Source of the DNA: Dehalococcoidia bacterium
GTDB lineage: Bacteria; Chloroflexota; Dehalococcoidia; Bin125
Length of the DNA: 64,000 nt
Direction of reading: 5' to 3'
NCBI GenBank assembly: GCA_965261225.1
Contig: OZ253456.1
Span: 1,190,099 to 1,254,098, forward strand
In this document: in pieces, positions 36,701-53,500 of the stretch
How positions within the stretch are numbered: the first letter of the stretch is position 1
How the letters are laid out: each line of letters begins with the position of its first letter
Notes under the pieces: model-generated
Databases searched by the model: none
Told to the model about the DNA's origin: nothing
Seen by the model: the letters and a program-made list of their open reading frames with translations, nothing else
Made by a program: the position numbers and the translations under genes

Positions 36701-36902
36701 GTTGATGGCCACCCTGTTCGGAGTAATGCACAACGGCGCGGACTCGATGCGCGAGTTGAGCGCCGATCGCATTGAACAGATTCGCCAGCGCGGTGTAGTG
36801 CGATAGCTCCGGCGTTCCGACGAGGCTGACCTCTGCGATGGCGTCGAGGTACGCCTTGACCGCTTGCCTGAGTTCATTCACTGTGGTGACCCAGCTTCCC
36901 AA
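33756..36902 (-). CDS. Type IIL/IIG restriction-modification enzyme, MmeI-like (N-terminal PD-(D/E)XK nuclease, gamma-class N6-adenine methyltransferase, C-terminal target-recognition region)
   Basis: The N-terminus has D...EVK (HQPDLGFFS...GVVEVKGADADLDEL). The methyltransferase has the region VWYTPREVVRYMV, motif I VYVLDPCCGTGAFL and motif IV LGNPPYNGF. The length is 1048 aa with no helicase motifs. Confidence 0.75.
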   Translation of the reverse strand: MGSWVTTVNELRQAVKAYLDAIAEVSLVGTPELSHYTALANLFNAIGAQLAHRVRAVVHYSEQGGHQPDLGFFSSAGEALATGPDRGVVEVKGADADLDELIASEQVDTYWQKHKLVLVTNLREFALVGQDNSGSKATLERYSAANTVAAFDDLLKHRVTAANRHGVSLGEYLLRVMSHRSTISEPRDLARLLASYARDALQRVEQAEEEEDSLKPIRDSIEQALGMSFEDERGEEFFRSTLVQTLFYGIFAAWVLWARGGPSSKSADRFRWKDTRDYLRAPVLRMLFHQLTDPGRLERLALNDVLDWTEAALERVDREAFLKRFSEGEAVQYFYEPFLEAFDPKLRKDLGVWYTPREVVRYMVARVDRALRDDLGIAKGLADERVYVLDPCCGTGAFLVETLRRIAETEQSSGGGAAWAESVRQAAATRVFGFEIMPAPLVVSHLEIGLALEQMGAGLAPSQRAGVFLTNALTGWEPHTTKPLPFPELEQERKDATEVKQQRPILVVLGNPPYNGFPGVAEVDEERNLTDAYRTVKQVPGADLPKPQGQGLNDLYVRFFRMAERRIAEKTGQGIVCFISNYSWLDGLSFPGMRQRYLDAFDIVRIDNLNGDKYRTGKLTPEGDSDPSIFSTSDNPVGIQVGTAIATLVRKESHQSAEQIDWRELWGTSKSRELDESAGVDPSALYGSVRPMAGLGLPFSPVAVSDDWFEWPSLLDLFPAYFPGVKTSRDSLVVDINLDDLRKRISELVEAADSDFIRYAYRPFDVRWLYWSEKTGLLDRPRPEYRPHVFPGNLAIVSQQKPRREWSPAQVISTIGCLDLFDRSATCVPLYLRDDQFGEEVNGVKRTANLSERAQAYIESMSAEPEDLFHHVLATLHDPAYREANAGGLRMGWPRIPLPDSADALAESAARGRRLARLLDTESDVSDLLDTSIAVPTTTDGAPMQPNDFKISAGWGHFGTNQAVMPGQGKVVRRGDMVDVYLNDRAYWKDVPIEVWEYRLGGYQVLKKWLSYRESKVLGRGLEVSEVAWFSEVARRAAGITKISEADR

Positions 36903-37020: not shown

Positions 37021-38035
37021 GTGTCCTGAGTCGGGAATACGGTTGAGATATGCGGCGAGGTTGTCGAAGATCTGGTCGGCGGTCTTGTGTCAGACGAAGG
37101 GGCGCGGATGTTCGTTCCAGCCGGCGACCCAGCGTTCGATGTCGCCGGTCAGGTCAGACACGCGACAGTGGGCGCCGCGCCGGAGCCATTTGGTGGTCAG
37201 TTCGGCGAACCAGCGCTCAACCAGGTTCATCCAGGAGGTGGGCGTGAAGTGAAAGCGGAAGCGGGGATGACGCTGGAGCCAACGCTGGATCTCGGCGGTG
37301 CGGTGGGTGGCCACGTTGTCCAAGACGACATGCACGGCGAGTTCGTCGGGTACCTGCTCGTCAATCAGGTCGAGGCAGCGCCGGAACTCGCGGGCCCGGT
37401 GTCGCGGAGTCAGGTCGGCGATCACGTGTCGCGAGGCGATATCCAGCGCCGCGTAGAGATTGGTGGCCCCGTGACGCACGTAGCCGTGAGTCTGACGGCG
37501 AGGCGCCGCCGGGCAGCATCGGCCGCGTCGCAGCGGTGCGGTCAAGCGCCTGGATCTGGGTTTGCTCGTCCACGCACAGCACGACCGCCGCGTCGGGCGG
37601 GTCGACCAATGGGTCGCGTGGCGCGGTTGCTGTTCCAGCGTCTTGACGATCACCGCTTCCACCTGCTCATCGCCGATCGTGCGGGGCGCGTCGGGACGCG
37701 GCTCATCGCTCAGCCCATCCAGCCGCCGCTGGGCGAAGCGTCGCCGCCACTTGCCGGCCGTGACCGGATGGCAACCGAGCGCCGCGCCGATCTCAGTATG
37801 CGCCTGCCCGGCCGCCGCCGCGAGCACAATCCGGCTGCGTAGCGCCAAGGCCTGCGCCGTGCTCGGTCGGCGCGCCCAGCGCTCCAGCGTCTCTCGCTCC
37901 TCCGCACTCAACACGATCGTCACCGTCGGGCGGCCCTGTCGGGTACGCATGACACTCCAGCGAAAGCCCCGGACGGCCAAACCGGCTCCATCAACACCAG
38001 ACCCCGTTGTTCATCGCATTAGCGACTCAGGACAC
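37021..38035. mobile_element. IS630-family insertion sequence, degenerate (about 1.0 kb)
   Basis: The terminal inverted repeats are (C)TAGTGTCCTGAGTCG at 37018-37033 and CGACTCAGGACACTG at 38023-38037. The flanking dinucleotides are TA and TG, consistent with IS630 TA-target duplication allowing one mismatch. Confidence 0.65.
37090..37980 (-). pseudogene. IS630-family transposase with an internal deletion and frame change
   Basis: The N-terminal HTH region (RSRIVLAAAAGQAHTEIGAALGCHPVTAGKWRRRF) and the C-terminal DDE region (HVVLDNVATHRTAEIQRWLQRHPRFRFHFTPTSWMNLVERWFAEL) are present. The central ALVLCVDE...QALDRT segment is readable only in another frame (ORF 37361-37609), and about 50 aa are missing ahead of it. 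Confidence 0.7.
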
Positions 38036-38139: not shown

Positions 38140-41100
38140 CTACCCGTCCGGTCCGACGACGGTAAACTCCAACCCGTTGGAGAGCTTCCTGCCGTCACCG
38201 GTGCAGATGGCCCCCTGGTCGTCGCAGTCATTGGTGACGGGAAGGACGATGGTCACGTTCCCGTTGGCGTGCGGTTGCACAGTGATTCGCCACTGGATGT
38301 TGCTAGGCTTTTCCACCCGCTGCGCTTTCTTCACCGTTCCCCCAGTCACCGTGAACGCATCAAACTTCAGGTTCCTGAAGCTCAGCGCGACCTCCTCGCT
38401 GAAGCGGATTTCGAACGTGAATACGTCAGTGCCGTTGTGAATAGTGGGATTGTTCTCCAAGCTGACGGTCAGCGGGATGAGAGCCGCCGTCACCGCGTCC
38501 GTTGCGGCGCTGGTCAAAGACTCCGCGTTGCTCCGGTCGTCGATGAAGTTCACCCGTACCTGAATGGTCTGTCCCTGCTCGCTGGACGTGAGGGTGTAGG
38601 CGGAGCCCGTGGCTCCGGCGATGTCCGACCCACCGGCAACCCACTGGTAGGTGAAGGTGGCGCCAACGAGCCCGTCAGCGTCAGCGATGCCGGAGGTGTT
38701 CGCCGTCAACGTCTCGCCAACCTGGGCGGTGCCGATGATTGTCGGCGCTGCGGTGGCGGGGCTGTTGGGCGCGGCGTCTACTGCTGCCGTCGCCGCGCTG
38801 GTCAGCGTCTCCCCGTTGTCGGCGTCGTCGGTAAAGGACACCTTAACCTTGATGGTCCTGCCCTCGTCGTCGGCAGCCAGGGAGTAGGTAGAGCCCGTCG
38901 CGCTTGTGATGTCCGAGTCCGAGCTACCGTCGTTTCTTATCCACTGGTAGCTGAAGGACACGTTGCTCAGCCCGTCGGCGTCGGCGATGGCAGAGGTGTC
39001 CGCCGTCAATGTCTCCCCGACCTGGGCAGCGCCGCTGATGGCGAGAGCCCCGGTGGCCGGGCTGTTGGCTACCTGTTGCTGGACAGCAAAGCTGACCGAA
39101 TCCGTCGCCGCGCTGGTCAGGGATTCTGCGTACCCGCCCCTGTCGGTGAAGGCGACCCGGACCTTGACGATCTTTCCCTCGTCGGCTGCAACCAAGATGT
39201 AGGTAGAGTCGGTTGCGCCCGTGATGTCAGCGTCTGCGCTCCCATCGTTGGTTACCCATTGGAACCGGAACTGCACCTGGTCCAGACCGTTTCCGTCCTC
39301 TATTCCCGTCGTATCGGCGGTGAAGCTCTCTCCGACCTGCGCCGTGCCATTGATGACAGGCGCGCCACTGGCCGTCACGTTGTCCGGCCTGGCCTGTTTG
39401 CCCAACGAAGATTGGTTCGTGGAGCCCACTTGCCTGAAATCGGACCAATCCGAGGAGCTGTGAGCGTTTCTGGCACGTACCTGGAACCAGTGCGTGGAGC
39501 CGGGGTCCAGTTTGCTGATGATGCCCCCCGCCCCGTAGAACGCGATCTCAACGCCGTCTCCCGGCAGGTCCATCCACTGGCCGTTCCGGAACAGCTGCAC
39601 GTCGTAGGAATCGGCCCCCGGCACATCGTTCCACTCCAGGTCTACGCCCCCGACGAAGACCGCAGTCCCGACCGGCCGATCCGGAGTGTCCGGAGCGCTG
39701 ACCGGCGGCGGCGGCGGTCCGGCTATCTGCAGGGCGGGAGCAACCGTCAGAGTCCCTCCGTCCGCGGTGCAAAGCGCCCCCACCTCGGTACACGCCCGGT
39801 TCAGCGGCGTGAGTATCGACACCGGCCCGTTCCCCGAGGGCTGAAGCGTCAGATCCCAGAGGGTCTTGAGTCCTTCCACCTGCTCTGCGCCGGTCACCGT
39901 CCCACCGAACACCGTCAACGCGTGGTCGCGCATGTCCTCGGGCGTTATCTCCACGTCCTCGCTGAAGGCCATCCGCAGCGTGAACGCGCTCGACCCGTCA
40001 TGGGACAACGGCGGGTTCTCGAAGGCTGCCATCAGTGGCTCGGCCGCGGTCGCCATGGACGCAGCGGCTTTGGTAATCCAGAGCTGGTACACCCTCCGAT
40101 CGAAGGCGGTATGCCCTTCGACTCTAGCGTTCGGGCCAATGACCCAGATCGACCTGTAGCGATTCTGTCTGCCCAACTTGAGGTCGAACCTGTCCATCTC
40201 GAGGTCGAACTGAACGCCGGCCAGGTCCGGGTCCTCGTCGATAGCATCCAGCCGGACCGTCTCGGTGCGCATCAGGCGCACGTCCGGGTCGGGTGAGTTC
40301 TTCTCCACAGACACCGTTACCGCGGTCGTGCCGGAGGACACCCTGATCTTGAAGGTGGCTGCATTCGTGCCCAGGTGAAAACCCGGTGTGAACGAGAGCA
40401 GCGTCCCGTTGACCGGCGTCACCGTGAGCGTCTTCAGTCTCACATCCGCCGCCGGGCCGCCGCCACCTTCTCCCCGACGGACCGTCACTCTGTAGGTCTT
40501 GGTCTCGTTGCCGTCCGCCGAGGTGACGGTCACCCTCCAGGTGGTGGAGCCTTCCGGCACGTCGAGCTTCGCCGTGGCGCCGCCGTCCCAGCGGTCGCCG
40601 GCGGTGAAGGTGCCGGCGGGACCGGTGACGACGACCGTGGCGCCCGTGGCGTAGGGCGCTGCCTGCATGGTCAGCTCACTGAAGGAGTGGCGCCCGTCGT
40701 AACTGTAGGTGTCTGACCCTATCCCGCCGAGCCAGATTCCGCCCTTCGTCGTGAGCCACAGCTTCGACAGCCGCGCATCGTCCTCCTTGCCCACCCAGCG
40801 CTTGATTTCCTGCCCCAACGCATCGCCGGCAGCGGTGCAGATGGGGTGGCCGGAGGAACTGCAGTCCAGGGTTTGCCGCACGCGGATGCGGACCGGATCC
40901 CCCGAGCTGGGCGTGATCGTCATCGTGAAGTTCCGCTTGCTGCTGCCCACCGCGGCGAGGTCGCTCTTGGTCCCGTTCTTGATCCCGACTGCCCCGTCGA
41001 GGTTGTCGATCGAGTCGTCGGAGATGTCCTTGTTGAACTTGAGCGTCACCGAGAACGCCGTGCTCCCGTCGTGGGACGACGGCAGGTTCTCGATCCGCCC

Positions 41101-42198
41101 ACTGAGTCCCCCGCCGCGGTCCACGATCACCGTGTAGACCTTCATGGTGCTGTCGTCCGGCGCCGTGACCTGCACGGTGAAGGTGTTGAGGCCGGGCGAG
41201 ACATCCCCATAAATCTCGTCTGCGTCCCCGGTGTCCTCTTGCGTGCTCCCGTCGGGACGGGTTACCACCAACTCGGCGCCGGCTTCGGTCGCCGTCGCAC
41301 TCAAGATAGCTACCGTGACTCCGCTGGGAACTCCGGCTGTGTACTGGGTCGTGTCCGGGGAGAATGCAGGGTCGAGGGGCGCGTTGTTCGTAATTACCAC
41401 ATCAGTTAAGTAGTCGACTCTGAGGCTTTTCAGCGTCGCATCGTCGGAGGCCATCACGGTCGCCTCCGACAGCTTGACCTCCACCGTATCCCCGACGCTC
41501 CAGCCCCTGCCGGTTTGAACGTCGAGAAATCCATCGCCCTCCGGATCGAGGAAATCGAAACTTCTGCTGCCCAGATCAAGGGTGTAGCCCGAGCCTGAGA
41601 GATCGCCGGTGTAGTACAACTCCAGATAAGTGCCATCGTGGGTGAGCTGGTTCACGGTGATGGGCGAGCCGTTGCGGGTGAATTCATTGGGCGTTAGCGC
41701 GCCATATGAAATGGAGAATGAAGTGGCGAACCCGGTAAAAGCGATTGAGGTTGGGTGCTGCCCGACCGTGAGCGTGGCGCACCAGAGGACGTCGCACTCC
41801 TGGGCCTGCGCCCGGGCCGGTAGGGCCAGGAGCGCGGCGAAGGCCACGAGCAGCAACACGGCCGATATCCGCCAACGTGCGAGAGAACCAACGCGGACGG
41901 ACCGGGCCAGCGCTGCGCCGAGGATGGTTCGGCTGGTCGCGCCGGACCGGGCCGCGTCAGCAGGCTCGGTTGGTGCGGACGCGCGAGGAAGAGCACCGCC
42001 GGACTTACGGGATGCCGCCGGAGGGTTGGCGGCGAGTGGCTCGTCCGCAATCGAAGATTCGTCCACAGCCGACGAGGAACGTTCACCTGACCGGCTGCGC
42101 CGCCAGCGGCTCAGCCCAGTCATGCCACGCCGCCGCCGCAGCGCGTCGAGAACGCGTGATTCGTAGGCGCTGTGCGGCTGCGCAGGCGCGTGCTTCAT
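38140..42198 (-). CDS. Giant adhesin-like surface protein (about 1350 aa) with an Arg-rich N-terminal leader plus hydrophobic anchor, cadherin-like beta-sandwich domains, an FN3 domain and Ig-like YQW repeats
   Basis: The listed ORF runs to 42327, but homology with the divergent paralog places the start at MKHAPAQ (42198). The leader is RWRRSRSGERSSS...RISAVLLLVAFAALLALPARAQAQ. Downstream features include the CDVLWCATLTVGQ motif, LKSLRVD...FSPD...YTA cadherin-like patterns, and three YSYQWIRNDGS...GATxSTY...VKVSFTDD repeats. Confidence 0.7.
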   Translation of the reverse strand: MKHAPAQPHSAYESRVLDALRRRRGMTGLSRWRRSRSGERSSSAVDESSIADEPLAANPPAASRKSGGALPRASAPTEPADAARSGATSRTILGAALARSVRVGSLARWRISAVLLLVAFAALLALPARAQAQECDVLWCATLTVGQHPTSIAFTGFATSFSISYGALTPNEFTRNGSPITVNQLTHDGTYLELYYTGDLSGSGYTLDLGSRSFDFLDPEGDGFLDVQTGRGWSVGDTVEVKLSEATVMASDDATLKSLRVDYLTDVVITNNAPLDPAFSPDTTQYTAGVPSGVTVAILSATATEAGAELVVTRPDGSTQEDTGDADEIYGDVSPGLNTFTVQVTAPDDSTMKVYTVIVDRGGGLSGRIENLPSSHDGSTAFSVTLKFNKDISDDSIDNLDGAVGIKNGTKSDLAAVGSSKRNFTMTITPSSGDPVRIRVRQTLDCSSSGHPICTAAGDALGQEIKRWVGKEDDARLSKLWLTTKGGIWLGGIGSDTYSYDGRHSFSELTMQAAPYATGATVVVTGPAGTFTAGDRWDGGATAKLDVPEGSTTWRVTVTSADGNETKTYRVTVRRGEGGGGPAADVRLKTLTVTPVNGTLLSFTPGFHLGTNAATFKIRVSSGTTAVTVSVEKNSPDPDVRLMRTETVRLDAIDEDPDLAGVQFDLEMDRFDLKLGRQNRYRSIWVIGPNARVEGHTAFDRRVYQLWITKAAASMATAAEPLMAAFENPPLSHDGSSAFTLRMAFSEDVEITPEDMRDHALTVFGGTVTGAEQVEGLKTLWDLTLQPSGNGPVSILTPLNRACTEVGALCTADGGTLTVAPALQIAGPPPPPVSAPDTPDRPVGTAVFVGGVDLEWNDVPGADSYDVQLFRNGQWMDLPGDGVEIAFYGAGGIISKLDPGSTHWFQVRARNAHSSSDWSDFRQVGSTNQSSLGKQARPDNVTASGAPVINGTAQVGESFTADTTGIEDGNGLDQVQFRFQWVTNDGSADADITGATDSTYILVAADEGKIVKVRVAFTDRGGYAESLTSAATDSVSFAVQQQVANSPATGALAISGAAQVGETLTADTSAIADADGLSNVSFSYQWIRNDGSSDSDITSATGSTYSLAADDEGRTIKVKVSFTDDADNGETLTSAATAAVDAAPNSPATAAPTIIGTAQVGETLTANTSGIADADGLVGATFTYQWVAGGSDIAGATGSAYTLTSSEQGQTIQVRVNFIDDRSNAESLTSAATDAVTAALIPLTVSLENNPTIHNGTDVFTFEIRFSEEVALSFRNLKFDAFTVTGGTVKKAQRVEKPSNIQWRITVQPHANGNVTIVLPVTNDCDDQGAICTGDGRKLSNGLEFTVVGPDG

Positions 42199-42351
42199 CC
42201 CAGCCTCCCGTTCCTCATCGACACGCATGCACGGGCTCGGACGCTGTGCACGCACGAGAAGCCGGACCACGCTTGAGCGGGCCCAGACGACTTCCGCCCG
42301 CGGAATCGCATCCTGCACGCGTGACACCGGCGAGGCGAGGCCCAGAGTTCC

Positions 42352-42378
42352 GAACAGATGTGTTATAGCGTGTATAAA
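42352..42378. repeat. Left copy of a 27-bp near-perfect inverted repeat (GAACAGATGTGTTATAGCGTGTATAAA), overlapping a 10-6-10 palindrome GCGTGTATAA-atcttg-TTATGCACGC
   Basis: Its reverse complement matches 43701-43727 at 26 of 27 positions. It lies 154 bp upstream of the 42198 start codon. It is AT-rich relative to the surroundings and contains the near-palindrome AACAGATGTGTT. Confidence 0.7.
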
Positions 42379-42512
42379 TCTTGTTATGCACGCTTTATCT
42401 CCCTTATTCGAGCGTTTACGACCGATATCAACACATCTCTGCGTGGTGTAGCAGTGTATCCACTGCCCAGGGAAATGAGCAAATCACGAGATCCGCGAGG
42501 CGCCCAGCGTGC

Positions 42513-43646
42513 CTAGCCAAGTTGTCTGCGGCGGCCAACACAATATTGCGCCACTGCCCCGCGGGCGGCCGTCTCGTTGCGCGTGTAGAGGGCCGGCATG
42601 GCCGAGTCGCGCCAGCGCCCGGCGGTCATCAGGCTGGTCAGTTCGATCCCGGCGCGGGCCAGGTCCTGGGCCATGCCGACGCGCGGCGAGTGGCCGCTGA
42701 AGCCCGCGCCGAGGCCGGCCGCCGCCGCCGCCTGGCTGATCCGCTCGGCGATCTGATTGGGCCGCAAGGGGAAGAGGCGCTCGTCGCTGTCCGCTCCGCT
42801 GCGCAGTTGTTCAAGCGCAGCCATCGTCTCAGGCGAGATGTAGAGGATCGCGCCGGCCCCCTCGGCGTCCGTCTTCGAGTGCCGGATCAGCAGTCGTCCG
42901 GTGCCGTCGCGCATCAGGCTGATCAGGGCGATATCGAGGAGCCCGCGGTTGCGAGCGGTCTGAGGATATTCAGGCCGCCCGCCCCTGCCCAGGCGGGGCA
43001 TACAGGCCGTTGAGCGTATCTGGTCAAGGGCCGTGTCCGTGAGCGGTCTGGCTTGCTGTTGGCCGCGGCCGAGCTTGCGCCCGGCTCCACGCAAGGTGCG
43101 TTTGACCTCGTCCGAGCTGCAGGGGTCAAACGGTCCCGCGGCGCGGTGCACAAACGCGATCGCCGAAGCGGCGACCCGCAGCGTGGCTGGCTTGTGCTGC
43201 TGGCGTTCGATTCGTTCGGCGAGGTATGCCGCGACCTGAGCGGGTGCGGCCGGCAGCGGGCTGACGGCCTTGGCCTGCGCCCATTCGGCGAAACGGTTCC
43301 ATTGGCCGCGGTAGTTCTTGAGCGTGTTGGCGGGGAATTCGTGCTCCTGCACCGCTTGCAAATCATCGAGCTCGATTTCTGACAGTTCTGAAGCATCCCG
43401 GCCGAACGCACGCCTGGCCGGGGGTGGACCTGGGCCATCGTCGATCAGCCGACGGCGGTCTGGCGACTCGCCCGACGGCGACCACTTCGCGCTCAGCGGA
43501 GGGCTGACGGGCGACCGGCAGTCGAGCTGTGCGGCTCCCGGGGGCAAGTAGCCAGTCTGGTCAAGCACAAGGTTTGGCCGATTCTCCGCCGTTTGCGTCG
43601 GACGGTCGGGTTCCAGTTTGGAGACGTGAACGGTCTTTAGAAGCAT
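42513..43646 (-). CDS. Tyrosine-type site-specific recombinase (XerC/D and phage-integrase family)
   Basis: The C-terminal catalytic signature is HSPRVGMAQDLARAGIELTSLMTAGRWRDSAMPALYTRN (H-x-x-R, W and the nucleophile Tyr). The core-binding region is LQAVQEHEFPANTLKNYRGQWNRFAEWA. The gene lies entirely between the two 27-bp inverted repeats. Confidence 0.8.
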   Translation of the reverse strand: MLLKTVHVSKLEPDRPTQTAENRPNLVLDQTGYLPPGAAQLDCRSPVSPPLSAKWSPSGESPDRRRLIDDGPGPPPARRAFGRDASELSEIELDDLQAVQEHEFPANTLKNYRGQWNRFAEWAQAKAVSPLPAAPAQVAAYLAERIERQQHKPATLRVAASAIAFVHRAAGPFDPCSSDEVKRTLRGAGRKLGRGQQQARPLTDTALDQIRSTACMPRLGRGGRPEYPQTARNRGLLDIALISLMRDGTGRLLIRHSKTDAEGAGAILYISPETMAALEQLRSGADSDERLFPLRPNQIAERISQAAAAAGLGAGFSGHSPRVGMAQDLARAGIELTSLMTAGRWRDSAMPALYTRNETAARGAVAQYCVGRRRQLG

Positions 43647-43700
43647 GTAGATACCAGATGTGTAGGTACCGAGTTGTTAGCTAAACCGTGTATAACTGCA

Positions 43701-43727
43701 TTTATACACGCTATAACACATGTGTTC
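43701..43727. repeat. Right copy of the 27-bp inverted repeat (TTTATACACGCTATAACACATGTGTTC), adjacent to the palindrome CCGTGTATAA-ctgcat-TTATACACGC (43686-43711); contains the perfect palindrome AACACATGTGTT
   Basis: It lies 154 bp upstream of the 43881 start codon, the same spacing as the left copy. Flanking DNA shows only about 70% identity between the two arms, which makes this conserved core stand out. Confidence 0.7.
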
Positions 43728-43880
43728 TGCCTTCTGACCCTGGTCCGCTGGAGTGACGCGTCGTCGTCGCGACGCCCTCGGGCGGCTTGCCGCCTGAGCG
43801 CCGTCATGCACGAGGGGACCACCCAGGTCGGTGCGGCGTCGAGCACTCGCACGCGTGCCGGCTGAACAGGAGACGCCGGG

Positions 43881-44972
43881 ATGAAGAACTACCCTGCGCT
43901 GTCGCCCAGCGCCAGTGATTCGCGTCTGTTTGATGCGCAGCGGAGCCGTGGCATACCGCGGTTGAGCTGGTGGCGGCGCAGCCGGCCGGGCGGACGTTCC
44001 TCGTCGGGGGCGGACGAAGCTTCGATCTCGGACGAACCGCTCGCCGCCAACCTTCCGGCGGCATCCGCTGAGCCAGGTGCCGGGTCTGTTTCCGGCGCGT
44101 CCGCACCGACTGAGCCTGCCGCCGCAGCCCGGAACGGCGCTGCCCGGTTCGGCGCGACCAGCCGAACCATCCTCGGCGCCGCCCGTGCCCGGTCCGTCCG
44201 CGTTGGCGCTCTCGCAGGTTGGCGGATATCGGCCGTGCTGCTGCTCGTGGCCTTCGCCGCGCTCCTGGCCCTGCCGGCGCAGGCGCAAACGGCGGGCACG
44301 CTGGTCTCGAATCTGGAGCAGACCGACACTTCCGGGTCCACTTCGCAGCTGGCACAGGCCTTCGACACCGGCTCGAACGCCGCTGGTTACGGGTTGACCA
44401 GCGTCACTCTCAGACTGGCCGGGGCAGAGCAAAATCCTGGCAGAGGCGCCCTGGTACGAATCACGCCAGCGACCAGCAGCGGCCCGGACTTGAGCGACTC
44501 GACCAAGATCATCACGCTAACCACTCCGACGTTGACGACGGACGCCGACAATGTATTCACCGCGCCTGCCGGCGCCACGTTGGACGCGGACAGCACCTAC
44601 ATGGTCGTGGTCACGAGCGCTGACGGCACTGACGGTAATCGATTTCCTGTGGGGCGGACCCGATCAACCGGAACGGACAGCGACAGCGATCCCGAGTGGG
44701 ACATTGCCGATACCAGGTTCTTTAGAGACGACAACACAGATACCTGGTCTACAAGCAGCACCCTTCTCCAGTTCAAGATATCGGGCACCGCCAGCGTCGG
44801 CCCCACCGAGGTCCCCAGTGACTGGAGCCTGATCCCCACCGGCCTGACCACCGGCGACCAGTTCCGGCTGATCTTCCTCTCCTCGACCAAGCGCGACGGC
44901 GAGGCCACCGACATCGCGACCTACAACAGCTTCATCCAGACCCGCGCCGCGGCCGGCCACACCGACAGCTAG
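43881..44972 (+). CDS. Giant adhesin-like protein 2, N-terminal segment (Arg-rich leader plus anchor, VSNLEQTD...AQAFDTG N-domain); ends at an in-frame TAG (44970-44972)
   Basis: The leader MKNYPALSPSAS...RWRRSRPGGRSSS...RISAVLLLVAFAALLALPAQAQ is about 65% identical to the leader of the 38140-42198 protein. The same frame reopens after the TAG (45048-45410, IYWLNGAKVADDYADFYDEDWDEE...). Confidence 0.6.
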   Translation: MKNYPALSPSASDSRLFDAQRSRGIPRLSWWRRSRPGGRSSSGADEASISDEPLAANLPAASAEPGAGSVSGASAPTEPAAAARNGAARFGATSRTILGAARARSVRVGALAGWRISAVLLLVAFAALLALPAQAQTAGTLVSNLEQTDTSGSTSQLAQAFDTGSNAAGYGLTSVTLRLAGAEQNPGRGALVRITPATSSGPDLSDSTKIITLTTPTLTTDADNVFTAPAGATLDADSTYMVVVTSADGTDGNRFPVGRTRSTGTDSDSDPEWDIADTRFFRDDNTDTWSTSSTLLQFKISGTASVGPTEVPSDWSLIPTGLTTGDQFRLIFLSSTKRDGEATDIATYNSFIQTRAAAGHTDS

Positions 44973-45367
44973 ACCTACAGCGCCGGCTTCAGCGTCGTCG
45001 GTTGCACCGCAGACGTCGACGCCCGCGACAACACCGGCACGATCGGCGTGGGCGTCCCGATCTACTGGCTCAACGGGGCCAAGGTCGCCGACGACTACGC
45101 GGATTTCTACGACGAGGACTGGGACGAGGAGCGCCACAACCAGAATAAGAACGAGTTAGGCGCCAACGGCCCCGACACCGGCAGCAGCGGCAACTACCCC
45201 CGCACCGGCTGCGACCACGACGGCACCGAGGCTTTCACCCCGGGCGGGTCTTCAGTGCCGCTCGGATCGACCGCTGACACCACGCGCGTTGGCCGTCCCA
45301 ACTCATCCACGAGCAGCGAGGGCCCCTCAGTAGCGGCACCCTCGCGGACTCCGACAAAAACCGCCCC

Positions 45368-48300
45368 ATGTACGGGCTCTCGGCGGTCTTCAAGGTGGCC
45401 GCGGTGGTGACCAACAGCGACCCGACGTTCGCGATGTCGACGGCGGACCGCGAGGTGGCCGAGAACACGGCGGCGGGCCAGAACGTCGGCGCCGTGCTGA
45501 CCGCCAGCGACAGCGACGGCGACACGCTGACCTACACGCTCGAAGGGACCGACTCAGCCTCCTTCGTCCTCGACACGACCACGACCGCCGGCTCGGCCCA
45601 GATCCAGACCAAGACGGGCGTGAGTTACGACCACGAGGTCAAGTCCAGCTACAGCGTCGTGGTCAAGGCCGACGACGCTGGCGGCGGAACCGCCGCCAGC
45701 GTCACGGTGTCGATCGCGATCACCGACGTGGACGAGGCCCCGGAGCGGCCGGCGGCGCCGGCGGTGACCGCGACGTCGGGATCGACCACCAGCCTGTCCG
45801 TGAGCTGGACCGAGCCGGCGACCACCGGTCCCGACATCGACGACTACGACCTGCGCTACCGCGAGGGCACCAGCGGCAACTGGAGCAACGGCCCGCAGAA
45901 CGTGACCGCCACGCTTGCCAGCATCGGCAGCCTCGACGCCGGGACCTCGTACCAGGTGCAGGTACGCGCCACCAACGACGAGGGCGACAGCAACTGGTCG
46001 CCCTCGGGCAGCGGCTCAACCACTGCGGAGGCGACGCCGACGGTGAGCATCTCGGCGGACAAGACCAGCGCGGTCTTCAAGCAAGACGGGATCAGCTACA
46101 CGCTGACGCGCAGCGGCTCGACGACCGGCGCCCTGACCGTCTCGGTCACGCTGACACAGACGAAGGATTTCCTGTTGGCGACGGAGCTCACGAAGACGGT
46201 GACGATCGCCGCGGGCCAGTCGACGAAGACCTTCACGGTCGCGGCCTCGAGCTTCCAGCATTTCGCGGTGGGAACCACGGTCGAGGGCGGAACCCTGACC
46301 GCGGCGGTGCAGGATGTCCTCGGCTACGACCTGGGGACGCCGTCCTCGGTCGCTGTGTCCATCGTCATCCACTCGATGATCGGGCTCGACCAGGCGTCCT
46401 ACACCGTCGGCGAGGCAGCCGGGACCCTCACCGTCAAGCTCACTGGGCGCACCAGCCCAGGCGCGCCGCAGCCGACTTCGAACACCAGCACTGTGGAGCT
46501 GACTCCGGTTGACCAGACCACCTCGTCAGGAGATTTCGACGCTTCTTTCATTGCATATCAGTTCACGCCCTCTCACTTCAGCTTGACCGGCGGAGTGTGG
46601 AAGGCGGAGGAATCGTTAGCTATCACGATCACGAACGACGATCTCGACGAGGACGACGAAACCTTCGATCTCGAAATCGAGTATCGAGTCGGGACCCAGC
46701 ACAGCCCGCTCGTGGATGCGTCCGGCAACTCCTGCGGGTCCAAGTGCACGGTGACGGTGACGATCACCGACGACGACACGGCGGGCGTCACGGTCTCGAA
46801 GTCGTCGCTGACGGTGACCGAGCAGGACACGACCGGCGACAGTTACACGGTGGTCCTCGACAGCCAGCCGACCGCGGATGTGACGATCTCCGTCGGCGGG
46901 CAGTCGGGCACGGACGTCACTGCGGCTCCGACTCCAATGACCTTCACGACCGTGAACTGGGCGACGCCGGTGACGGTGACGGTGACGGGCGACGACGATG
47001 CGGACACGACCAACGACATTGTCTCGCTGACCCACAACGCGGCGAGCGGCGACAGCGACTACCAGGGCATCACGATCGCCGGCCTGACGGTGTCGGTCAA
47101 CGACAACGACACCGCCCAGGTGACGGGGCTGATGGTCGAACCGGGCAACGGGCAACTGGTGGTGCAGTGGACGGCGGTCACGGGCGCGACGGGCTACCAG
47201 GTGCAGTGGAAGTCGGGCGGCCAGGGCTACAACAACAGCGGCCGGCGCGCCGTCATCGGTTCGGGTTCGACCACGAGCCACACGATCCCCAGCCTGAGCA
47301 ACGGCACCGAGTACACGGTGCGGGTCAGAGCGACGCGGACCGGCGCCAACGCCGGCGCGTATTCGTCGGAGGTGTTGGAGACGCCGGTGATGCCGACGGC
47401 GGCGGGCGTCACGGTCTCGAAGTCGTCGCTGACGCTGACCGAGCAGGACACGACCGGCGACACATATACGGTGGTCCTCGACCGCCTGCCGACGGCGAGT
47501 GTGACGGTGACGGTGGGAGGCCTGGGCAGCTCGGACGTCACCGCCAACCCGTCCAGCCTGACCTTTACGACCGTGAACTGGGCGACGCCGCAGATGGTGA
47601 CGGTGACGGCCGGCAACGATGCGGACACGACGAACGACACGGTCTCGCTGAGCCACAGCGCGATGAGCAGCGACAGCGCCTACCAGGGCATCACGATCGC
47701 CGGCCTGACGGTGACGGTCAACGACAACGACACCGCGCAGGTGACGGGGCTGATGGTCGAACCGGGCAACGCGCAACTGGCGGTGGAGTGGACGGCGGTC
47801 ACGGGCGCGACGGGCTACGAGCTGCAGTGGAAGTCGGGCGTCCAGAGCTACAACACCAGCGGCCGGCAGGCCACAATCAGCTCGGGTTCGACCACGAGCC
47901 ACACGATCCCCAGCCTGACCAACGGTACCGAATACACGGTACGGGTCAGAGCGACGCGGACCGGCGCCAACGCCGGCGCGTATTCGGTGGAGGTGTTGGA
48001 GACGCCGGTGATGCCGACCGCGGCGGGCGTCACGGTCTCGAAGTCGGCGCTGACGCTGACGGAGCAGGACACGACCGGCGACACGTACACCGTGGTCCTC
48101 AATACCCTGCCGACGGCGACTGTCACGGTGACGGTGGGAGGCCTGGGCAGTTCGGATCTGACCGCCAACCCGTCCAGCCTGACCTTCACGACCGTGAACT
48201 GGGCGACGGCTCAGACGGTGACGGTGACGGCCGGCAACGATGCGGACACGACGAACGACACGGTCTCGCTGAGCCACAGCGCGATGAGCGGCGACAGCGA

Positions 48301-51300
48301 CTACCAGGGCATCACGATCGCCGGCCTGACGGTGACGGTCAACGACAACGACACCGCGCAGGTGACGGGGCTGATGGTCGAACCGGGCAACGCGCAACTG
48401 GCGGTGCAGTGGACGGCGGTCACGGGCGCGACGGGCTACGAGCTGCAGTGGAAGTCGGGCGTCCAGAGCTACAACAACAGCCGGCGCGCCGTCATTAGTT
48501 CGGGTTCGACCACGAGCCACACGATCCCCAGCCTGAGCAACGGCACCGAGTACACGGTGCGGGTCAGAGCGACGCGGACCGGCGCCAACGCCGGCGCGTA
48601 TTCGTCGGAGGCGTTGGAGACGCCGGTGATGCCGACGGCGGCGGGCGTCACGGTCTCGAAGTCGTCGCTGACGGTGACCGAGCAGGACACGACCGGCGAC
48701 ACGTACACCGTGGTCCTCGACCGCCTGCCGACGGCGACTGTCACGGTGACGGTGGGCGGCCTGGGCAGTTCGGATCTGACCGCCAACCCGTCCAGCCTGA
48801 CCTTCACGACCGTGAACTGGGCGACGGCCCAGACGGTGACGGTGACGGCCGGCGACGATGCGGACACGACCAACGACACGGTCTCGCTGAGCCACAGCGC
48901 GATGAGCACTGACGGCGACTACCAGGGCATCACGATCGCCGGCCTGACGGTGACGGTGGCAGACAACGACACCGGCAACACCCCCGCCGAGGGCAAGCCG
49001 ACCATTTCGGGTCCGGCGCAGGCGGGTCGGACGCTGACGGCCTCGACGGCCGGCATCACCGACGCCGAGGGGCTGACGACGGTCAGCTACAGCTACCAGT
49101 GGCTCGCGTCGGGGACGGCTATCGGGGGCGCCACGAGTTCCACCTACAGCGTGAGCGCGAGCGTGCAGGGCGACAAGATCTCGGTCAGGCTGACCTTCGA
49201 CGACGATGAGGACAATCCCGAGACGCTGACCAGCAACGCGACCAACAACGCGGTGGTGCCCGCTGCGGTCACCTGTCCCACGGGCACGCTCTGGTGCTCC
49301 ACGCTGACGGCGGGGTACGGCACAGCAGATATGGACGGTGAGTTCTTTCTTGGGCTGGGCGCCGGCGTCGATACGCCCCCCGAGAGTTACGGCAGCCTCG
49401 ACGACGGCGCCTTCACGCACCTCGGGGCGCCCTACACGGTCACGCAGTTCTTCGCTGACGCGGACGGCTTGGCGGCGATCTTTGCCACCAGTCCGAACCT
49501 GCCCGACGACGGCGCCGGGCTGACGCTGCAGGTCCAGCAGGTCTCGGGCCAACGCGAGATCCCGCTGAGCGGAAAAGCGTACTCCAGCATCCCCTATTTG
49601 CCAGCGACCATAAAGGCCTGGCAGCTTAGAACTGCTCTCAGGTCCAGCGTTACTGATCCCTTGACCGCCCCGCTCCTGCGCGGTTTCGATCGAGCTTACG
49701 ATCCGTACGGAAGTCAAACCGACGAGGACACCGAGGTCACGGTCTGGCTGACCTACACCAACCGCCCTGCCGAGGGCGGCCCGACGATTTCCGGCAGGGC
49801 GCAGGTAGGCGAGACGCTGACGGCCGGCATGGGCGACATCGCCGACGCCGACGGGCTGCCGACCACGTTCCCGGGCGACTACAGCTTGCAGTGGCTGCGG
49901 GTGGACGCCGACGGCGTCTCGAACGAGACGCCCATCGGCGCCGACGCCCTGACCTACACGCCGCTGGCGGTGGATCTGGGCAAGAAGCTCAGGGTGCAGG
50001 TGAGTTTCAGCGACGGCGGCGGCGGCAGCGAGACGCTGACCAGCGACGCCTACCCGTCCAGCGGCACGATCACCGACGACTCCGCGGCGGGCGTCACGGT
50101 CTCGAAGTTGGCGCTGACGGTGACGGAGGAGGACTCCTCCGGCGACACCTACACGGTGGTCCTCAATACCCAGCCGACCGCGAGTGTGACGGTGACGGTG
50201 GGAGGCCTGGGCAGCTCGGATCTGACCGCCACCCCGGCCAGCCTGACGTTTACGACCGTGAACTGGCAGACGGCCCAGACGGTGACGGTGACGGCCGGCT
50301 CCGATACGGACCTGACGGACGACACGGTCGCGCTGAGCCACAGCGCGGCGAGCAGCGACAGCGCCTACCAGGGCATCACGATCGCCGGCCTGACGGTGAC
50401 GGTGGCAGACAACGACGACCCGCCGCCGCCGCCGCCGGGGGTACGGGCCCTCGTCTCGAACCTCTACGAGACTCCCGCCTCCACCGGCACTGACTTTGAG
50501 ACGGTGGCGCAGCCCTTCACCACCGGCAACAACCCGGACGGCTACGTACTGACGAGCGTGGAGTTGCGGGCGGACGATACGACGGACGACACGCGCTTCC
50601 GCGTGCAGATCGTGACGCTCGACGGTGACGGCGAGCCGTCCGCCTTGCTGTATACGCTGAGCAACCCGGCCAGCATCGACGACGGACCCCTGACGTTCAC
50701 GGCGCCGGAGAGCGCGAACCTCGCTGCCGACACGAGCTATGCGGTCCAGGTGGTGATCAGCAGCGCCAACGGCGGCCCCAATCCCGGGGCCACGCTCGAT
50801 GTGACCCCCTCGTGGAACGAGGACCTCGCGCTGTACGGCTGGAGCATCGCCAACACCCGGTTCAAACGCTCCAGCGATACGGATCCCTGGAGCAGCAGCT
50901 TCACCCGCCTGGTCCAGCTGAGGATCAGAGGCGCGTTCTACATCGGACCCTCCAACAATGCAACGCTGGCGGCGCTGACGCTGGCCGACGCCGCGGACGA
51001 CAGCGCCATCGCGCTGAACGAGAGCGTCGCGGCGGGCACGACAGCCTATACGGCGGAGGTGGAGGACGGGGTCGAGACGATCACCATCAATGCAGAGACG
51101 GCCGACGACGGGGCAACCGTGGCGTTCCTCGACGGCAGCGGCGCGGCGCTCGCCGATGCGGACGCGACCGCGGACGGCTGGCAGGTCCAGCTGGGCGCGA
51201 GCGCGACCACCATCCAGGTGACGGTGACGGCCGAAGACGCCAGCACCCGGACCTACACCGTGACGCTGGTCGTGATCGACACCAGCGACGCGACGCTGCA

Positions 51301-53500
51301 GTCGCTCAGTCTGAGCGAGGTCGCGCTGAGTCGCACGTTCTCGCCTGACGTCACTTCGTACACGGCGAGCGTGGCGGACAGCGTCCTATCCACGACCGTG
51401 ACGGCGAACCCGGCTCAGCCCGAGGCCACGGCGGTGGTCAGGTTGGACGGCGTCGAGGACAGCGACGGCATTGTCGAGTTGGAGGAGGACACGACCTCGT
51501 TCAGCATCAGTGTCGTGGTGACCGCGCCCAACCGCACGAACACGCGGACCTACAGCGTCGCCGTCAACCGGGGCAGCGTCGCCGTCACCGGGACAACAGG
51601 CGGCGGCGGTGGCGGCGGCGGCGGCGCGCCGCCGGCGGCGGTCCCCTCCGAGGCCGACTTCGACTGGAACGTGACCCGCGACATCGAGTCGCTGGACCCC
51701 GACCACGACGCGCCGACCGACATCTGGTCGGACGGCCGGACGTTGTGGGTCCTGCAGAACGCGTCGGCGGGCGCCGACGCCGTGTTCGCCTACGAGTCGG
51801 ACAGCGGTGAGCGACAGGCGGAGCGCGAGTTCGAACTCGACCGGCGCAACCGCTTCGCGCACGGCCTCTGGTCCGACGGCGCGACCGTCTGGGTATCCGA
51901 TAGCGGTCAGGACACGCTCTTCGCCTACGAGCTCGGCAGCGGCGAGCGGCTCGAGGCGCGCGACATCGAACTGGCCGAAGACAACCGCGACCCACGCGGC
52001 GTCTGGTCGGACGGCGAGACGATCTACGTGCTCGACAGCGTCCAGGACGCGATCTTCGCCTACGACCTCGAATCGGGCGAGTTGCTGGCCGAGTACCCGC
52101 TGGACACGCTCAACCAGAGCCCGCGCGGGATCTGGTCGGACGGCGTCACGATCTGGGTCTCGGACGACGGCGCCAAGCGCATCTTCGCCTACCGGATCGA
52201 AGGCGGCGTGCTGGTCCGCTACGAGGCTGAGGAGTTCACGTTCCGCTCGCTGCTCAAGGCCGGCAACGGCGACGCGCGCGGGATCTGGTCGGACGGCGAT
52301 GTGATCTTCGTCGCGGACGAACAGGACGACAAGCTCTACAGCTACAACCTGCCCGACGCGATCAACGCGAACCTGGCGGCGCTCAGCTTGAGCGATGTCG
52401 AGATCGGCGCGTTCTCGCCGCTGCGCACCAGCTACGAGGCCGCAATCGGCGCCGCCACGCAGACCACGGTGTCGGCGCAGCCCGTGCGTGAGGACGCGAG
52501 CGTCAGCATCGTTCCGGCCGACGCGGACCCGGCGGACGGACACCAGGTCGCGTTCGCCGGTCTGGACGAGATCGCGGTCACCGTGACCTCACCCGACGGC
52601 AGCCGGACCCGTGTCTATCGCGTCAGCCTCGAACCAGGGCTAACCCCAGTCGACCAGACGCCGCCGGCGTCCGACGAGACTCCGCCGCAACCAGCGGACG
52701 CCGGCGGCGAGTCCAGCAGTGAGCCCAGCAGCGACGAGACGGCGGTTGAGGTGACCAGCGAGGTGCGGATCACGGTGCGCAATGCGCCGGACGGCCGGGT
52801 CGAGTTCGCACTACAGCAGCGCGCCGCCGATGGGAGTTGGGGCGAACGGCTGTTGCCGCGCGGCCGCTTCCTGGCGGCCGATGCGGCGCTCGGACGCTGG
52901 CTGTTCAGCACCCCGGTCGCCATCACGGTCGGCGGCGAGATCCTGGAGCTGCGGATCGGCGCCCGCCGTCTTGAGGACGGCCGGGTCGAGTTCGCACTAC
53001 AGCGCCGGACCGCGGACGGCTCCTGGAGCGGGCGGCTGCTGCCCAGCGCCCGCTATCTCCCGGCCGGGACCGAGGCCGGGCGCTGGCTGGCCAGCAGCGC
53101 CCTCGACGTCGACAGCGCCGGCAGCCTCAACGTGCGCATCGCCGCACGGCGGCTGGACGGCGGCCGGGTCGAGTTCGCCCTGCAGCAACAATCGGCGGAC
53201 GGCGCCTGGGGCGAACGCAACCTGCCCAGCGGCCGCTTCCTGCCGGTCGGAACTGAGGTCGGACGCTGGCTGGCCAGCAGCGCCGTCAACGTTGGCGAGG
53301 CCGCCGCCGGCGCAGTCGTACGCATCGCCGCACGGCGGGCGGCCGACGACCGGGTCGAGTTCGCACTGCAGCAACAATCGGCGGACGGGTCCTGGGGCGA
53401 GCGCCATCCGCCCAGCAGCCGCTTCCTGCCGGTTGAGGCCGAGATCGGACGCTGGCTGGCCAGCAGCGCCCTCGCCGTGTCGCTCGCGGACGCGCCATGA
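45368..53500 (+). CDS. Giant adhesin-like protein 2, main body (2710 aa): cadherin repeats, FN3 domains, five or more copies of an Ig-like SLTFTTVNWAT...VTVTAGxDADTTNDTVSLSH module alternating with FN3, YQW repeats, (Gly)9 linker, GIWSDG beta-propeller, cadherin-like beta-sandwich domain, four C-terminal RIAARRL...GRWLASS repeats
   Basis: The reading frame is +2 relative to the 43881 segment. The frame is open upstream of the first ATG back to about 45280, so the frameshift lies near 45290-45370, where there is a homopolymer-rich stretch (gacaaaaaccgcccc). The repeat modules are near-identical at the DNA level (47380-48960). Confidence 0.7.
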   Translation: MYGLSAVFKVAAVVTNSDPTFAMSTADREVAENTAAGQNVGAVLTASDSDGDTLTYTLEGTDSASFVLDTTTTAGSAQIQTKTGVSYDHEVKSSYSVVVKADDAGGGTAASVTVSIAITDVDEAPERPAAPAVTATSGSTTSLSVSWTEPATTGPDIDDYDLRYREGTSGNWSNGPQNVTATLASIGSLDAGTSYQVQVRATNDEGDSNWSPSGSGSTTAEATPTVSISADKTSAVFKQDGISYTLTRSGSTTGALTVSVTLTQTKDFLLATELTKTVTIAAGQSTKTFTVAASSFQHFAVGTTVEGGTLTAAVQDVLGYDLGTPSSVAVSIVIHSMIGLDQASYTVGEAAGTLTVKLTGRTSPGAPQPTSNTSTVELTPVDQTTSSGDFDASFIAYQFTPSHFSLTGGVWKAEESLAITITNDDLDEDDETFDLEIEYRVGTQHSPLVDASGNSCGSKCTVTVTITDDDTAGVTVSKSSLTVTEQDTTGDSYTVVLDSQPTADVTISVGGQSGTDVTAAPTPMTFTTVNWATPVTVTVTGDDDADTTNDIVSLTHNAASGDSDYQGITIAGLTVSVNDNDTAQVTGLMVEPGNGQLVVQWTAVTGATGYQVQWKSGGQGYNNSGRRAVIGSGSTTSHTIPSLSNGTEYTVRVRATRTGANAGAYSSEVLETPVMPTAAGVTVSKSSLTLTEQDTTGDTYTVVLDRLPTASVTVTVGGLGSSDVTANPSSLTFTTVNWATPQMVTVTAGNDADTTNDTVSLSHSAMSSDSAYQGITIAGLTVTVNDNDTAQVTGLMVEPGNAQLAVEWTAVTGATGYELQWKSGVQSYNTSGRQATISSGSTTSHTIPSLTNGTEYTVRVRATRTGANAGAYSVEVLETPVMPTAAGVTVSKSALTLTEQDTTGDTYTVVLNTLPTATVTVTVGGLGSSDLTANPSSLTFTTVNWATAQTVTVTAGNDADTTNDTVSLSHSAMSGDSDYQGITIAGLTVTVNDNDTAQVTGLMVEPGNAQLAVQWTAVTGATGYELQWKSGVQSYNNSRRAVISSGSTTSHTIPSLSNGTEYTVRVRATRTGANAGAYSSEALETPVMPTAAGVTVSKSSLTVTEQDTTGDTYTVVLDRLPTATVTVTVGGLGSSDLTANPSSLTFTTVNWATAQTVTVTAGDDADTTNDTVSLSHSAMSTDGDYQGITIAGLTVTVADNDTGNTPAEGKPTISGPAQAGRTLTASTAGITDAEGLTTVSYSYQWLASGTAIGGATSSTYSVSASVQGDKISVRLTFDDDEDNPETLTSNATNNAVVPAAVTCPTGTLWCSTLTAGYGTADMDGEFFLGLGAGVDTPPESYGSLDDGAFTHLGAPYTVTQFFADADGLAAIFATSPNLPDDGAGLTLQVQQVSGQREIPLSGKAYSSIPYLPATIKAWQLRTALRSSVTDPLTAPLLRGFDRAYDPYGSQTDEDTEVTVWLTYTNRPAEGGPTISGRAQVGETLTAGMGDIADADGLPTTFPGDYSLQWLRVDADGVSNETPIGADALTYTPLAVDLGKKLRVQVSFSDGGGGSETLTSDAYPSSGTITDDSAAGVTVSKLALTVTEEDSSGDTYTVVLNTQPTASVTVTVGGLGSSDLTATPASLTFTTVNWQTAQTVTVTAGSDTDLTDDTVALSHSAASSDSAYQGITIAGLTVTVADNDDPPPPPPGVRALVSNLYETPASTGTDFETVAQPFTTGNNPDGYVLTSVELRADDTTDDTRFRVQIVTLDGDGEPSALLYTLSNPASIDDGPLTFTAPESANLAADTSYAVQVVISSANGGPNPGATLDVTPSWNEDLALYGWSIANTRFKRSSDTDPWSSSFTRLVQLRIRGAFYIGPSNNATLAALTLADAADDSAIALNESVAAGTTAYTAEVEDGVETITINAETADDGATVAFLDGSGAALADADATADGWQVQLGASATTIQVTVTAEDASTRTYTVTLVVIDTSDATLQSLSLSEVALSRTFSPDVTSYTASVADSVLSTTVTANPAQPEATAVVRLDGVEDSDGIVELEEDTTSFSISVVVTAPNRTNTRTYSVAVNRGSVAVTGTTGGGGGGGGGAPPAAVPSEADFDWNVTRDIESLDPDHDAPTDIWSDGRTLWVLQNASAGADAVFAYESDSGERQAEREFELDRRNRFAHGLWSDGATVWVSDSGQDTLFAYELGSGERLEARDIELAEDNRDPRGVWSDGETIYVLDSVQDAIFAYDLESGELLAEYPLDTLNQSPRGIWSDGVTIWVSDDGAKRIFAYRIEGGVLVRYEAEEFTFRSLLKAGNGDARGIWSDGDVIFVADEQDDKLYSYNLPDAINANLAALSLSDVEIGAFSPLRTSYEAAIGAATQTTVSAQPVREDASVSIVPADADPADGHQVAFAGLDEIAVTVTSPDGSRTRVYRVSLEPGLTPVDQTPPASDETPPQPADAGGESSSEPSSDETAVEVTSEVRITVRNAPDGRVEFALQQRAADGSWGERLLPRGRFLAADAALGRWLFSTPVAITVGGEILELRIGARRLEDGRVEFALQRRTADGSWSGRLLPSARYLPAGTEAGRWLASSALDVDSAGSLNVRIAARRLDGGRVEFALQQQSADGAWGERNLPSGRFLPVGTEVGRWLASSAVNVGEAAAGAVVRIAARRAADDRVEFALQQQSADGSWGERHPPSSRFLPVEAEIGRWLASSALAVSLADAP

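Follow-up and report, generated by a model that had tools for sequence, protein, structure and literature searches.

A probably frozen copy of a family of Cre-type recombinase-carrying invertible promoters beside giant surface-protein genes in a Dehalococcoidia genome

In a 64,000-nucleotide stretch of the genome of a Dehalococcoidia bacterium (contig OZ253456.1 of assembly GCA_965261225.1, positions 1,190,099 to 1,254,098; the whole stretch is hereafter called the window), the 5' ends of two giant surface-protein genes face away from each other around a gene for a tyrosine recombinase, which raises the question whether this recombinase flips, or once flipped, the DNA between them. An original prediction made from the sequence had taken the locus for a DNA-inversion locus of the phase-variation kind, in which either the segment between two inverted repeats turns and re-aims an internal promoter, or recombination within a longer homology of the two 5' regions swaps promoter and leader between both genes. 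The answer reached here is that the window probably holds a frozen copy of a family of invertible promoters that carry their own Cre-type recombinase and lie beside giant surface-protein genes.

The inverted arrangement of the two 5' regions around the recombinase gene was confirmed by a repeat search of the window and by BLAST. The repeat search returned the inverted segment pairs 41807-41956/44138-44287 (91%), 41999-42139/43937-44077 (80%), 42131-42207/43872-43948 (70%) and 42338-42400/43679-43741 (79%); overall, 41807-42207 and 43872-44287 are 70-91% complementary, which BLAST summarizes as 430 bp at 79% plus a 46-bp core at 87%, and the leader proteins of the two giant genes are 66% identical. 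The predicted 27-bp inverted repeat is present as well (42352-42378 and 43701-43727), with 26 of 27 positions equal and each copy ending 154 bp from the ATG of its own giant gene (42198 and 43881). At up to three mismatches the 64 kb contain two copies, and no more, of the palindrome GTGTATAA-N6-TTATRCAC (0.00 copies expected from shuffles), and the recombinase gene, at 42513-43646 on the minus strand, is indeed the only gene between both copies. A palindromic core site of the tyrosine-recombinase type is thus in place; its geometry, first read as 10-6-10, is 14-6-14 (34 bp) by the family consensus given below, and two such sites in inverted orientation, 42364-42397 and 43682-43715, bound the segment. 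They are called R and L here, for the 3' and the 5' end of the recombinase gene, respectively. Directly outside each site, on the side of the giant gene, lies a 12-bp palindrome AACACATGTGTT (AACAGATGTGTT in the left copy), at 43715-43726 and 42353-42364 in the window and also in the L outer flanks of the related loci L001, L002 and L084; it explains much of the 27-bp repeat and could be a candidate binding site for an accessory protein or regulator. An Rfam scan of the whole window gave no match, and no tRNA genes that might serve as att sites are present in the window.

A family scan with one genome per species returned 70 related loci, mostly from metagenome-assembled genomes labelled Dehalococcoidia, the other carriers being labelled Acidimicrobiia ('Candidatus Poriferisodalis'), Binatia, Nitrospirales and Caldilineaceae; several genomes hold two or three loci. 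The same palindrome stands on both sides of the recombinase gene in 32 of the 70 loci, the window and its closest relative L071 included, at a spacing of 1.26-1.56 kb; genomes of Dehalococcoidia with this arrangement number about 30. The consensus site reads (T)AAAGC-GTGTATAA-N6-TTATACAC-GCTTT(A), with a 6-bp spacer between arms of 14 bp. The arms are kept across loci and the spacers vary, with 16 different kinds, of which ATGCAG is the commonest (8 loci). In 27 of the 32 loci both sites have one and the same spacer, in inverted orientation, which mirrors the rule that partner sites of Cre must have matching spacers, whereas left and right sites drawn from different loci match in only 8% of pairs. 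Conserved arms combined with locus-specific, matched spacers are what strand exchange by a tyrosine recombinase requires, and asymmetric spacers in inverted orientation predict inversion, not excision, as with Cre and FLP. The loci of Acidimicrobiia have other arms (of the GTGTGAAA and TTATCCCC types), and their spacers are again matched in several loci.

Comparison of such loci, each oriented by its recombinase gene beforehand, argues that site-specific inversion has occurred in relatives of the window. L041 and L057 belong to the same genome; their interior (5614-7106) aligns collinearly at 97%, and the flanks are reversed and side-swapped at 91-99% identity. The same collinear interior between swapped, inverted flanks was found in different genomes, for L007 compared with L009, L012 and L016, and the inverted-flank pattern recurs among contigs of Acidimicrobiia (L091 versus L092 and L054). 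In every compared case, and in two phyla, the change from collinear to inverted falls inside the palindromes. A metagenome scan gave 13 loci with one further inverted pair among them. The window locus itself has the same orientation as L071.

Within the unit, a promoter motif stands close to one end. In the aligned 170 bp inside the right-hand site, TTGAC(T/C), 16-19 nt and (G)TGnTAnnnT follow one another on the recombinase strand, 43-61 nt before the site. A pattern count found TTGACn-N16-19-TAnnnT, mostly after TG, at the 3' interior on the outward strand of 20 out of 33 loci, and in none of the 33 for each of seven controls (the other strand, the other unit end, and both outer flanks on both strands); the outer flank at the giant gene is GC-rich and devoid of the motif. 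This distribution points to a sigma-70-type promoter that reads outward at the end of the unit where the recombinase gene terminates; a giant gene that faces this end would be ON. In at least 21 loci, with the recombinase set on the plus strand, a giant open reading frame (ORF) of about 600 to more than 1900 aa lies to the left and runs away from the recombinase start on the minus strand, so that most assemblies would show the OFF state. It lies to the right, downstream of and co-directional with the recombinase, in the window, L071, L007 and L020 according to the site-anchored table, and in L024 according to its ORF list and domains, no sites having been identified in the latter. The first of the two predicted routes, inversion of the segment with an outward promoter inside, is supported for the family: the palindromes are core sites, the segment inverts in relatives and a promoter motif lies within it. 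Two other readings of the site were rejected: as -10 boxes, the palindrome arms have an unsuitable spacing and TG position, and a frame running from a GTG inside the site into the giant gene falls into different frames in L007. The R-site palindrome opens with a GTG, and in most loci (e.g. L007 about 7055-7080 and the window about 42398-42412) a conserved GGAGA precedes this GTG by about 10 nt, a Shine-Dalgarno-like spacing; a frame begun at this GTG runs, in the common orientation, for about 13 codons until a conserved TGA of the outer flank.

The recombinase of the window belongs to the Cre type but has lost a segment of its catalytic domain. With a profile of the protein and eleven homologs, the closest solved relative is Cre of phage P1 (E = 4e-20, positions 93-377) and XerD is a weak match only; the match to the tyrosine recombinase family PF00589 reaches 30 bits against a cutoff of 27.1, and a SAM-like N-terminal domain is weakly matched. 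The PF00589 match starts only at profile position 53 because a block of 21 residues, 'DAMLRVSEAAxLTWxDIxxxx', is deleted. This block is the Arg-I motif: in the profile alignment it pairs with 'LLRIAEI' / LLRIAEIARIRVKDISRT of Cre, which contains R173, the first catalytic arginine. The lysine (SKTD), His-x-x-Arg (HSPR), tryptophan (GRW) and tyrosine (YTR) are kept, so that the catalytic set of PF00589, complete in intact relatives, lacks the Arg-I block with its LRVSE in the window protein. The block is present in all eleven homologs and absent only in the window protein and in its 98%-identical ortholog P0001 of L071; homologs mostly measure 400-426 aa, compared to 377 aa, and in an exhaustive search nearly all relatives align to the window protein in two pieces that meet at residue ~251. 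An exact look-up of the window recombinase sequence in assemblies gave no record. Since Arg-I is known to be needed, we infer that the window recombinase is catalytically inactive.

In many other loci a second, shorter relative stands next to the switch. An ORF of about 269 aa without Pfam match adjoins the R site in L009 (7500-8327, minus strand), L075 (7827-8636, minus strand), L007 (4402-5220, plus strand) and about 17 other loci, not in the window, and is a truncated recombinase paralog at ~45% identity: it keeps LRVSE (Arg-I), has lost the lysine, reads GDSPR for GHSPR and ends before the tryptophan and the tyrosine. In the common orientation the switch promoter reads antisense into this paralog; in the flipped state the paralog lies upstream of, and co-directional with, the recombinase. 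It may be a regulatory subunit.

The sites and target genes of the window carry lesions of their own. Read in partner orientation its spacers are ATGCAG and ATCTTG, which differ at 3 of 6 positions and so depart from the matching found in the family. L071 shows the same spacer mismatch, the same arm mismatch and the same recombinase deletion, and because the window and L071 (96% identity) share all three, these predate the split of both genomes. Both giant genes do have a shared 5' module of about 600 bp, but the plus-strand gene (43881-53500) is not one open frame: CAG has become TAG at 44970-44972 and a 2-bp frameshift lies near 45330-45331, and removal of both lesions restores a frame of 3205 aa. 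Its orthologs in L002 (1849+ aa open within the locus) and L084 (3196 aa), at 96% DNA identity, are intact and have neither the TAG nor the frameshift. The minus-strand gene (38140-42198) has a 1347-aa ortholog in L071. The Arg-I deletion, the spacer mismatch, the facing of the promoter and the gene lesions fit a switch that was locked toward one gene, followed by decay of the one that could no longer be switched. They count against inversion in the window itself, the part of the original prediction that does not carry over from the family. The coordinates are collected in Table 1.

Table 1. Features of the switch locus, in positions of the window
Feature	Position	Strand	Remarks
Intact giant surface-protein gene, 1352 aa	38140..42198	-	Cadherin-like beta-sandwich, Ig-like and ZirU-like repeats; on the promoter (recombinase 3') side
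Left-gene 5' module	41807..42400	-	Outer site flank, 154-bp leader and ~135 codons with a signal-peptide-like end; one arm of the inverted repeat
lox-like R site (recombinase 3' end)	42364..42397	.	TATAGCGTGTATAA-ATCTTG-TTATGCACGCTTTA; divergent spacer, 1 arm mismatch; identical in L071
Promoter-like element TTGCTC-N18-TACACT	42453..42482	-	Reads through the R site toward the 38140-42198 gene; weak local version
Cre-type tyrosine recombinase, 377 aa	42513..43646	-	63-bp in-frame deletion, junction ~42908/42909
Right-gene 5' module	43679..44287	+	Second arm of the long imperfect inverted repeat
lox-like L site (recombinase 5' end)	43682..43715	.	TAAACCGTGTATAA-CTGCAT-TTATACACGCTATA; spacer in partner orientation ATGCAG; predicted inter-locus exchange junction
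Disrupted giant surface-protein gene	43881..53500	+	Choice-of-anchor R, fn3 and cadherin-like domains; on the promoterless side

How two giant genes came to share one switch is indicated by the breakpoints of collinearity. Collinearity of the window with L071, at 96.1%, extends from 43715 down to 34963; beyond its L site L071 has a different flank, of the type usually found outside the R site, and then remnants of insertion sequences (IS). Through the plus-strand giant gene and its upstream region up to 43685, the window instead matches L084 and L002 at 94-96%, and inside the unit it matches them at only 81-88% or not at all. Since the breakpoints 43715 and 43685 bracket the L site (43688-43709), the window appears to be a recombinant of two switch loci joined within that site, and since the deletion is common to the window and L071, the exchange would be later than the deletion; presumably a paralogous recombinase catalysed it in trans. 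The long imperfect inverted repeat would then be the shared 5' module of two paralogous giant genes that were brought into divergence, a module that also occurs in L001, L002 and L084. Extended inverted homology was found, apart from the window, only in L015 and, shorter, in L065. Among relatives the recombinase between the same palindromes recurs (in the 32 loci given above), but the divergent pair of adhesin genes is missing in L071 and in nearly all other family members. In L015 a long inverted duplication (4493-5721 and 7118-8364; 1247 bp, 88%) has duplicated ORFs without Pfam match that point toward the switch, and spacers that differ by one base.

Together, these results suggest the following mechanism. 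In the family, a unit of about 1.3-1.5 kb would consist of a Cre-type recombinase gene and an outward sigma-70-type promoter between its stop codon and the unit end, bounded by two inverted 34-bp lox-like sites with 14-bp arms and a 6-bp asymmetric spacer. The recombinase would exchange strands within the spacers and flip the unit, the promoter being aimed either into the neighbouring giant gene (ON) or away from it (OFF). In the window this switch is most likely frozen, with Arg-I lost and the spacers mismatched; its promoter end would face the intact gene at 38140-42198, and 43881-53500 would have decayed to a pseudogene. The two-adhesin layout would be secondary, a crossover at the L site having joined a giant gene of the L002/L084 type to a locus of the L071 type that was already defective and had its promoter in the ON position.

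Several observations weigh against this reading. The evidence for inversion comes from comparison between loci and not from flipping within a population, and ten contigs from four samples with the identical recombinase P0013 are all in one orientation; contigs with the recombinases P0004, P0015 and P0010 are uninformative on orientation. The promoter points away from the giant gene in most assemblies, and the motif is the sole basis of the ON/OFF assignment; moreover, the window version of the promoter (TTGCTC...TACACT) is weak and escapes a stricter search, since scanning 41900-44200 for consensus promoters and terminators returned nothing. The recombinase frame is open in two genomes, and between the window and L071 its ratio of non-synonymous to synonymous changes (pN/pS) is ~0.5, a value that stands on only 14 nucleotide differences and has little power; a residual function such as DNA binding may therefore persist. 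Finally, the TAG and the frameshift in the plus-strand gene could in principle be assembly errors.

The same observations bear on other explanations of the locus. It is unlikely that the switch of the window is still active, with the 1.3-kb segment flipping usefully and toggling both adhesins through the shortened recombinase or a paralog in trans. Both sites do have nearly perfect arms, the frame is conserved in two genomes, an exchange later than the deletion evidently made use of the L site, and related genomes carry two or three paralogous loci; against this, the Arg-I block is gone, the spacers differ at half of their positions while 27 of the 32 loci have identical ones, one of the two target genes is broken, and the closest relative has the same orientation. 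We consider it similarly improbable that the shortened recombinase now acts as a catalytically dead DNA-binding regulator, with the two sites, 154 bp upstream of each adhesin ATG, as its operators. With the deletion the catalytic domain is short of a structural segment, a role of this kind is not documented here, one of the supposed targets is a pseudogene, and the 14 differences hardly allow constraint to be tested, even though the frame has been kept in two genomes 4% diverged at the pN/pS given above, the N-terminal DNA-binding domain is retained along with most of the catalytic domain, and the truncated Tyr-less paralogs beside many switches indicate that non-catalytic family members exist.

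A small IS-like mobile element, inserted by chance between paralogous genes, would be compatible with several copies per genome, with the presence in several phyla and with a compact unit of 1.3-1.5 kb ending in terminal inverted repeats. It is nevertheless a very unlikely explanation, as orthologous loci hold the unit at the same place beside a giant gene (the giant neighbour occurring in at least 21 loci), the unit has been flipped in place and not moved, and palindromic core ends with a locus-specific spacer are a signature of strand exchange and not of transposase ends; the giant neighbour and the inversion in place do not fit the traits of an insertion sequence (variable contexts, a target-site duplication, no conserved neighbour). 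A scan of viral contigs returned no relatives, which speaks against a mobile element and likewise against a phage integrase. The second predicted route, RecA-dependent recombination between the 5' modules of 430-600 bp as in the Campylobacter fetus sap system, which would invert 41800-44290 and swap promoter and leader, is scarcely credible, because the long inverted homology, leaders included, is present but its arms are only 79% identical and lack long identical tracts, so that homologous recombination would find little to work on, neither the closest relative nor nearly any other locus has the layout, and paralogy of the gene 5' ends explains the homology.

The preferred reading, a frozen member of a family of recombinase-carrying invertible promoters, can be set beside the known switches. 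Cre/loxP of phage P1 and its relatives Dre/rox, Vika/vox, Nigri/nox and Panto/pox also use a 34-bp site with inverted arms and an asymmetric spacer, but Cre/loxP has a spacer of 8 bp and arms of 13 bp, compared to 6 and 14 here, and serves dimer resolution of a plasmid or phage, whereas the present sites are chromosomal and bracket their own recombinase gene in what appears to be promoter inversion. Hin/hix, of Salmonella flagellar phase variation, shares with the present family a recombinase gene and an outward promoter for a surface protein inside the invertible segment, yet Hin is a recombinase of the serine type and depends on Fis and an enhancer, and the enzyme here is of the tyrosine, Cre type with lox-like sites. 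FimB/FimE with fimS in E. coli, and the invertible promoters of Bacteroides (Tsr-type), are alike in that tyrosine recombinases flip a short promoter element for surface structures; there the recombinase genes lie outside the element and the repeats, of 9-30 bp, lack lox architecture, in contrast to a gene inside the unit and a locus-specific spacer here. In the vsa/HvsR and vpma/Xer1 systems of Mycoplasma the sites on which a tyrosine recombinase acts lie, as here, in conserved 5' regions of large genes for surface proteins, and exchange between sites moves one promoter from gene to gene. The window would likewise be the product of an inter-locus exchange: two of its genes carry site and 5' module, no more copies occur in the 64 kb, and we infer the exchange itself. 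The Mycoplasma systems are, however, clusters of many genes with one promoter, whereas the loci of the present family are scattered, with a separate recombinase and promoter for each, and have their site not within the conserved leader but upstream of it. Campylobacter fetus sap depends on near-identical long 5' regions and RecA and has no dedicated recombinase; the window differs from it in its arms at 79%, its dedicated recombinase and its core sites.

The giant proteins of the family contain cadherin-like, fn3, Ig-like, leucine-rich repeat (LRR) or sulfatase domains. At a flipped switch, that of L007, the giant protein (7593-12782) has a complete sulfatase domain between fn3/Ig repeats, so that not all switched genes are plain adhesins. 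The disrupted gene of the window has domain repeats of ~620 bp at about 46779-48977, which are 88-92% identical to one another and to repeats of the L002 and L084 orthologs.

Elsewhere in the window, the other large ORFs encode a Type ISP restriction-modification (R-M) enzyme (33756-36902, minus strand), a ResIII/Helicase_C helicase (54116-56473, minus strand) and cadherin/Big_9 proteins (10623-15664). The suggestion that such genes are silent or defective cassettes of the switch was rejected: the 5' module and the site occur only twice, with no copies elsewhere in the 64-kb window, and the enzyme, the helicase and the cadherin-type genes are unrelated in function. The cadherin/Big_9 ORFs at 10623-13754 and 13754-15664 (both on the minus strand) abut at 13754 and may be one large surface-protein gene split in two; no switch site or shared 5' module was found at them. 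An IS-type DDE_3 transposase gene (37090-37980, minus strand) lies beside the locus, and together with the restriction enzyme and the helicase it is consistent with the neighbourhood of defence genes and mobile elements seen in relatives. The strain-level contigs L072-L081, with identical recombinases, are 92-98% identical in their core and diverge completely from about 2.64 kb after the recombinase start into varied defence genes (including Type I, Type II and MmeI-like R-M, CD-NTase, DruA, RES/HEPN, Z1, OLD-TOPRIM and SNF2 helicases), which indicates that the switch borders a defence-island hotspot. In L001 (7356-9137), L002 (9048-10892) and L084 (10469-12103), the closest intact relatives of the window, genes for large serine recombinases lie a few kb beyond the R site, accompanied in L084 by small helix-turn-helix genes, which suggests an integrated element beside the switch.

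In the literature searched, the coverage of which is incomplete, no report of such a switch in sponge-associated bacteria was found, and as far as this literature shows the widespread DNA-flipping family is previously undescribed. The host organisms are uncultured, and it is only the names of their records that link them to marine sponges. Giant proteins whose adhesion domains resemble those of eukaryotes are believed to let sponges and symbionts recognize each other. As a tentative extension, to which we give somewhat less than even credence, Cre-type invertons with locus-specific 6-bp spacers might constitute an active, horizontally spread, multi-copy system of phase variation by which sponge symbionts from several phyla switch giant surface proteins that resemble eukaryotic ones (cadherin, fn3, LRR and sulfatase fusions). 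Recombination between loci, at sites with a shared spacer, would also bring promoters and giant genes into new combinations across the chromosome; the window would be a record of one event of this kind, its L site may still be open to switching in trans, and the truncated Tyr-less paralog beside many switches would regulate direction.

For the window itself, the analysis indicates a copy that is probably frozen, with one gene fixed beside the promoter and the other decayed. For genome engineering the family is of practical interest as a source of dozens of natural Cre-like enzymes for which the 34-bp sites are known and the spacers vary by nature. If the switch is truly common to Chloroflexota, Actinomycetota and other phyla, symbionts would vary their surface by phase variation in the same way as pathogens and gut commensals do.

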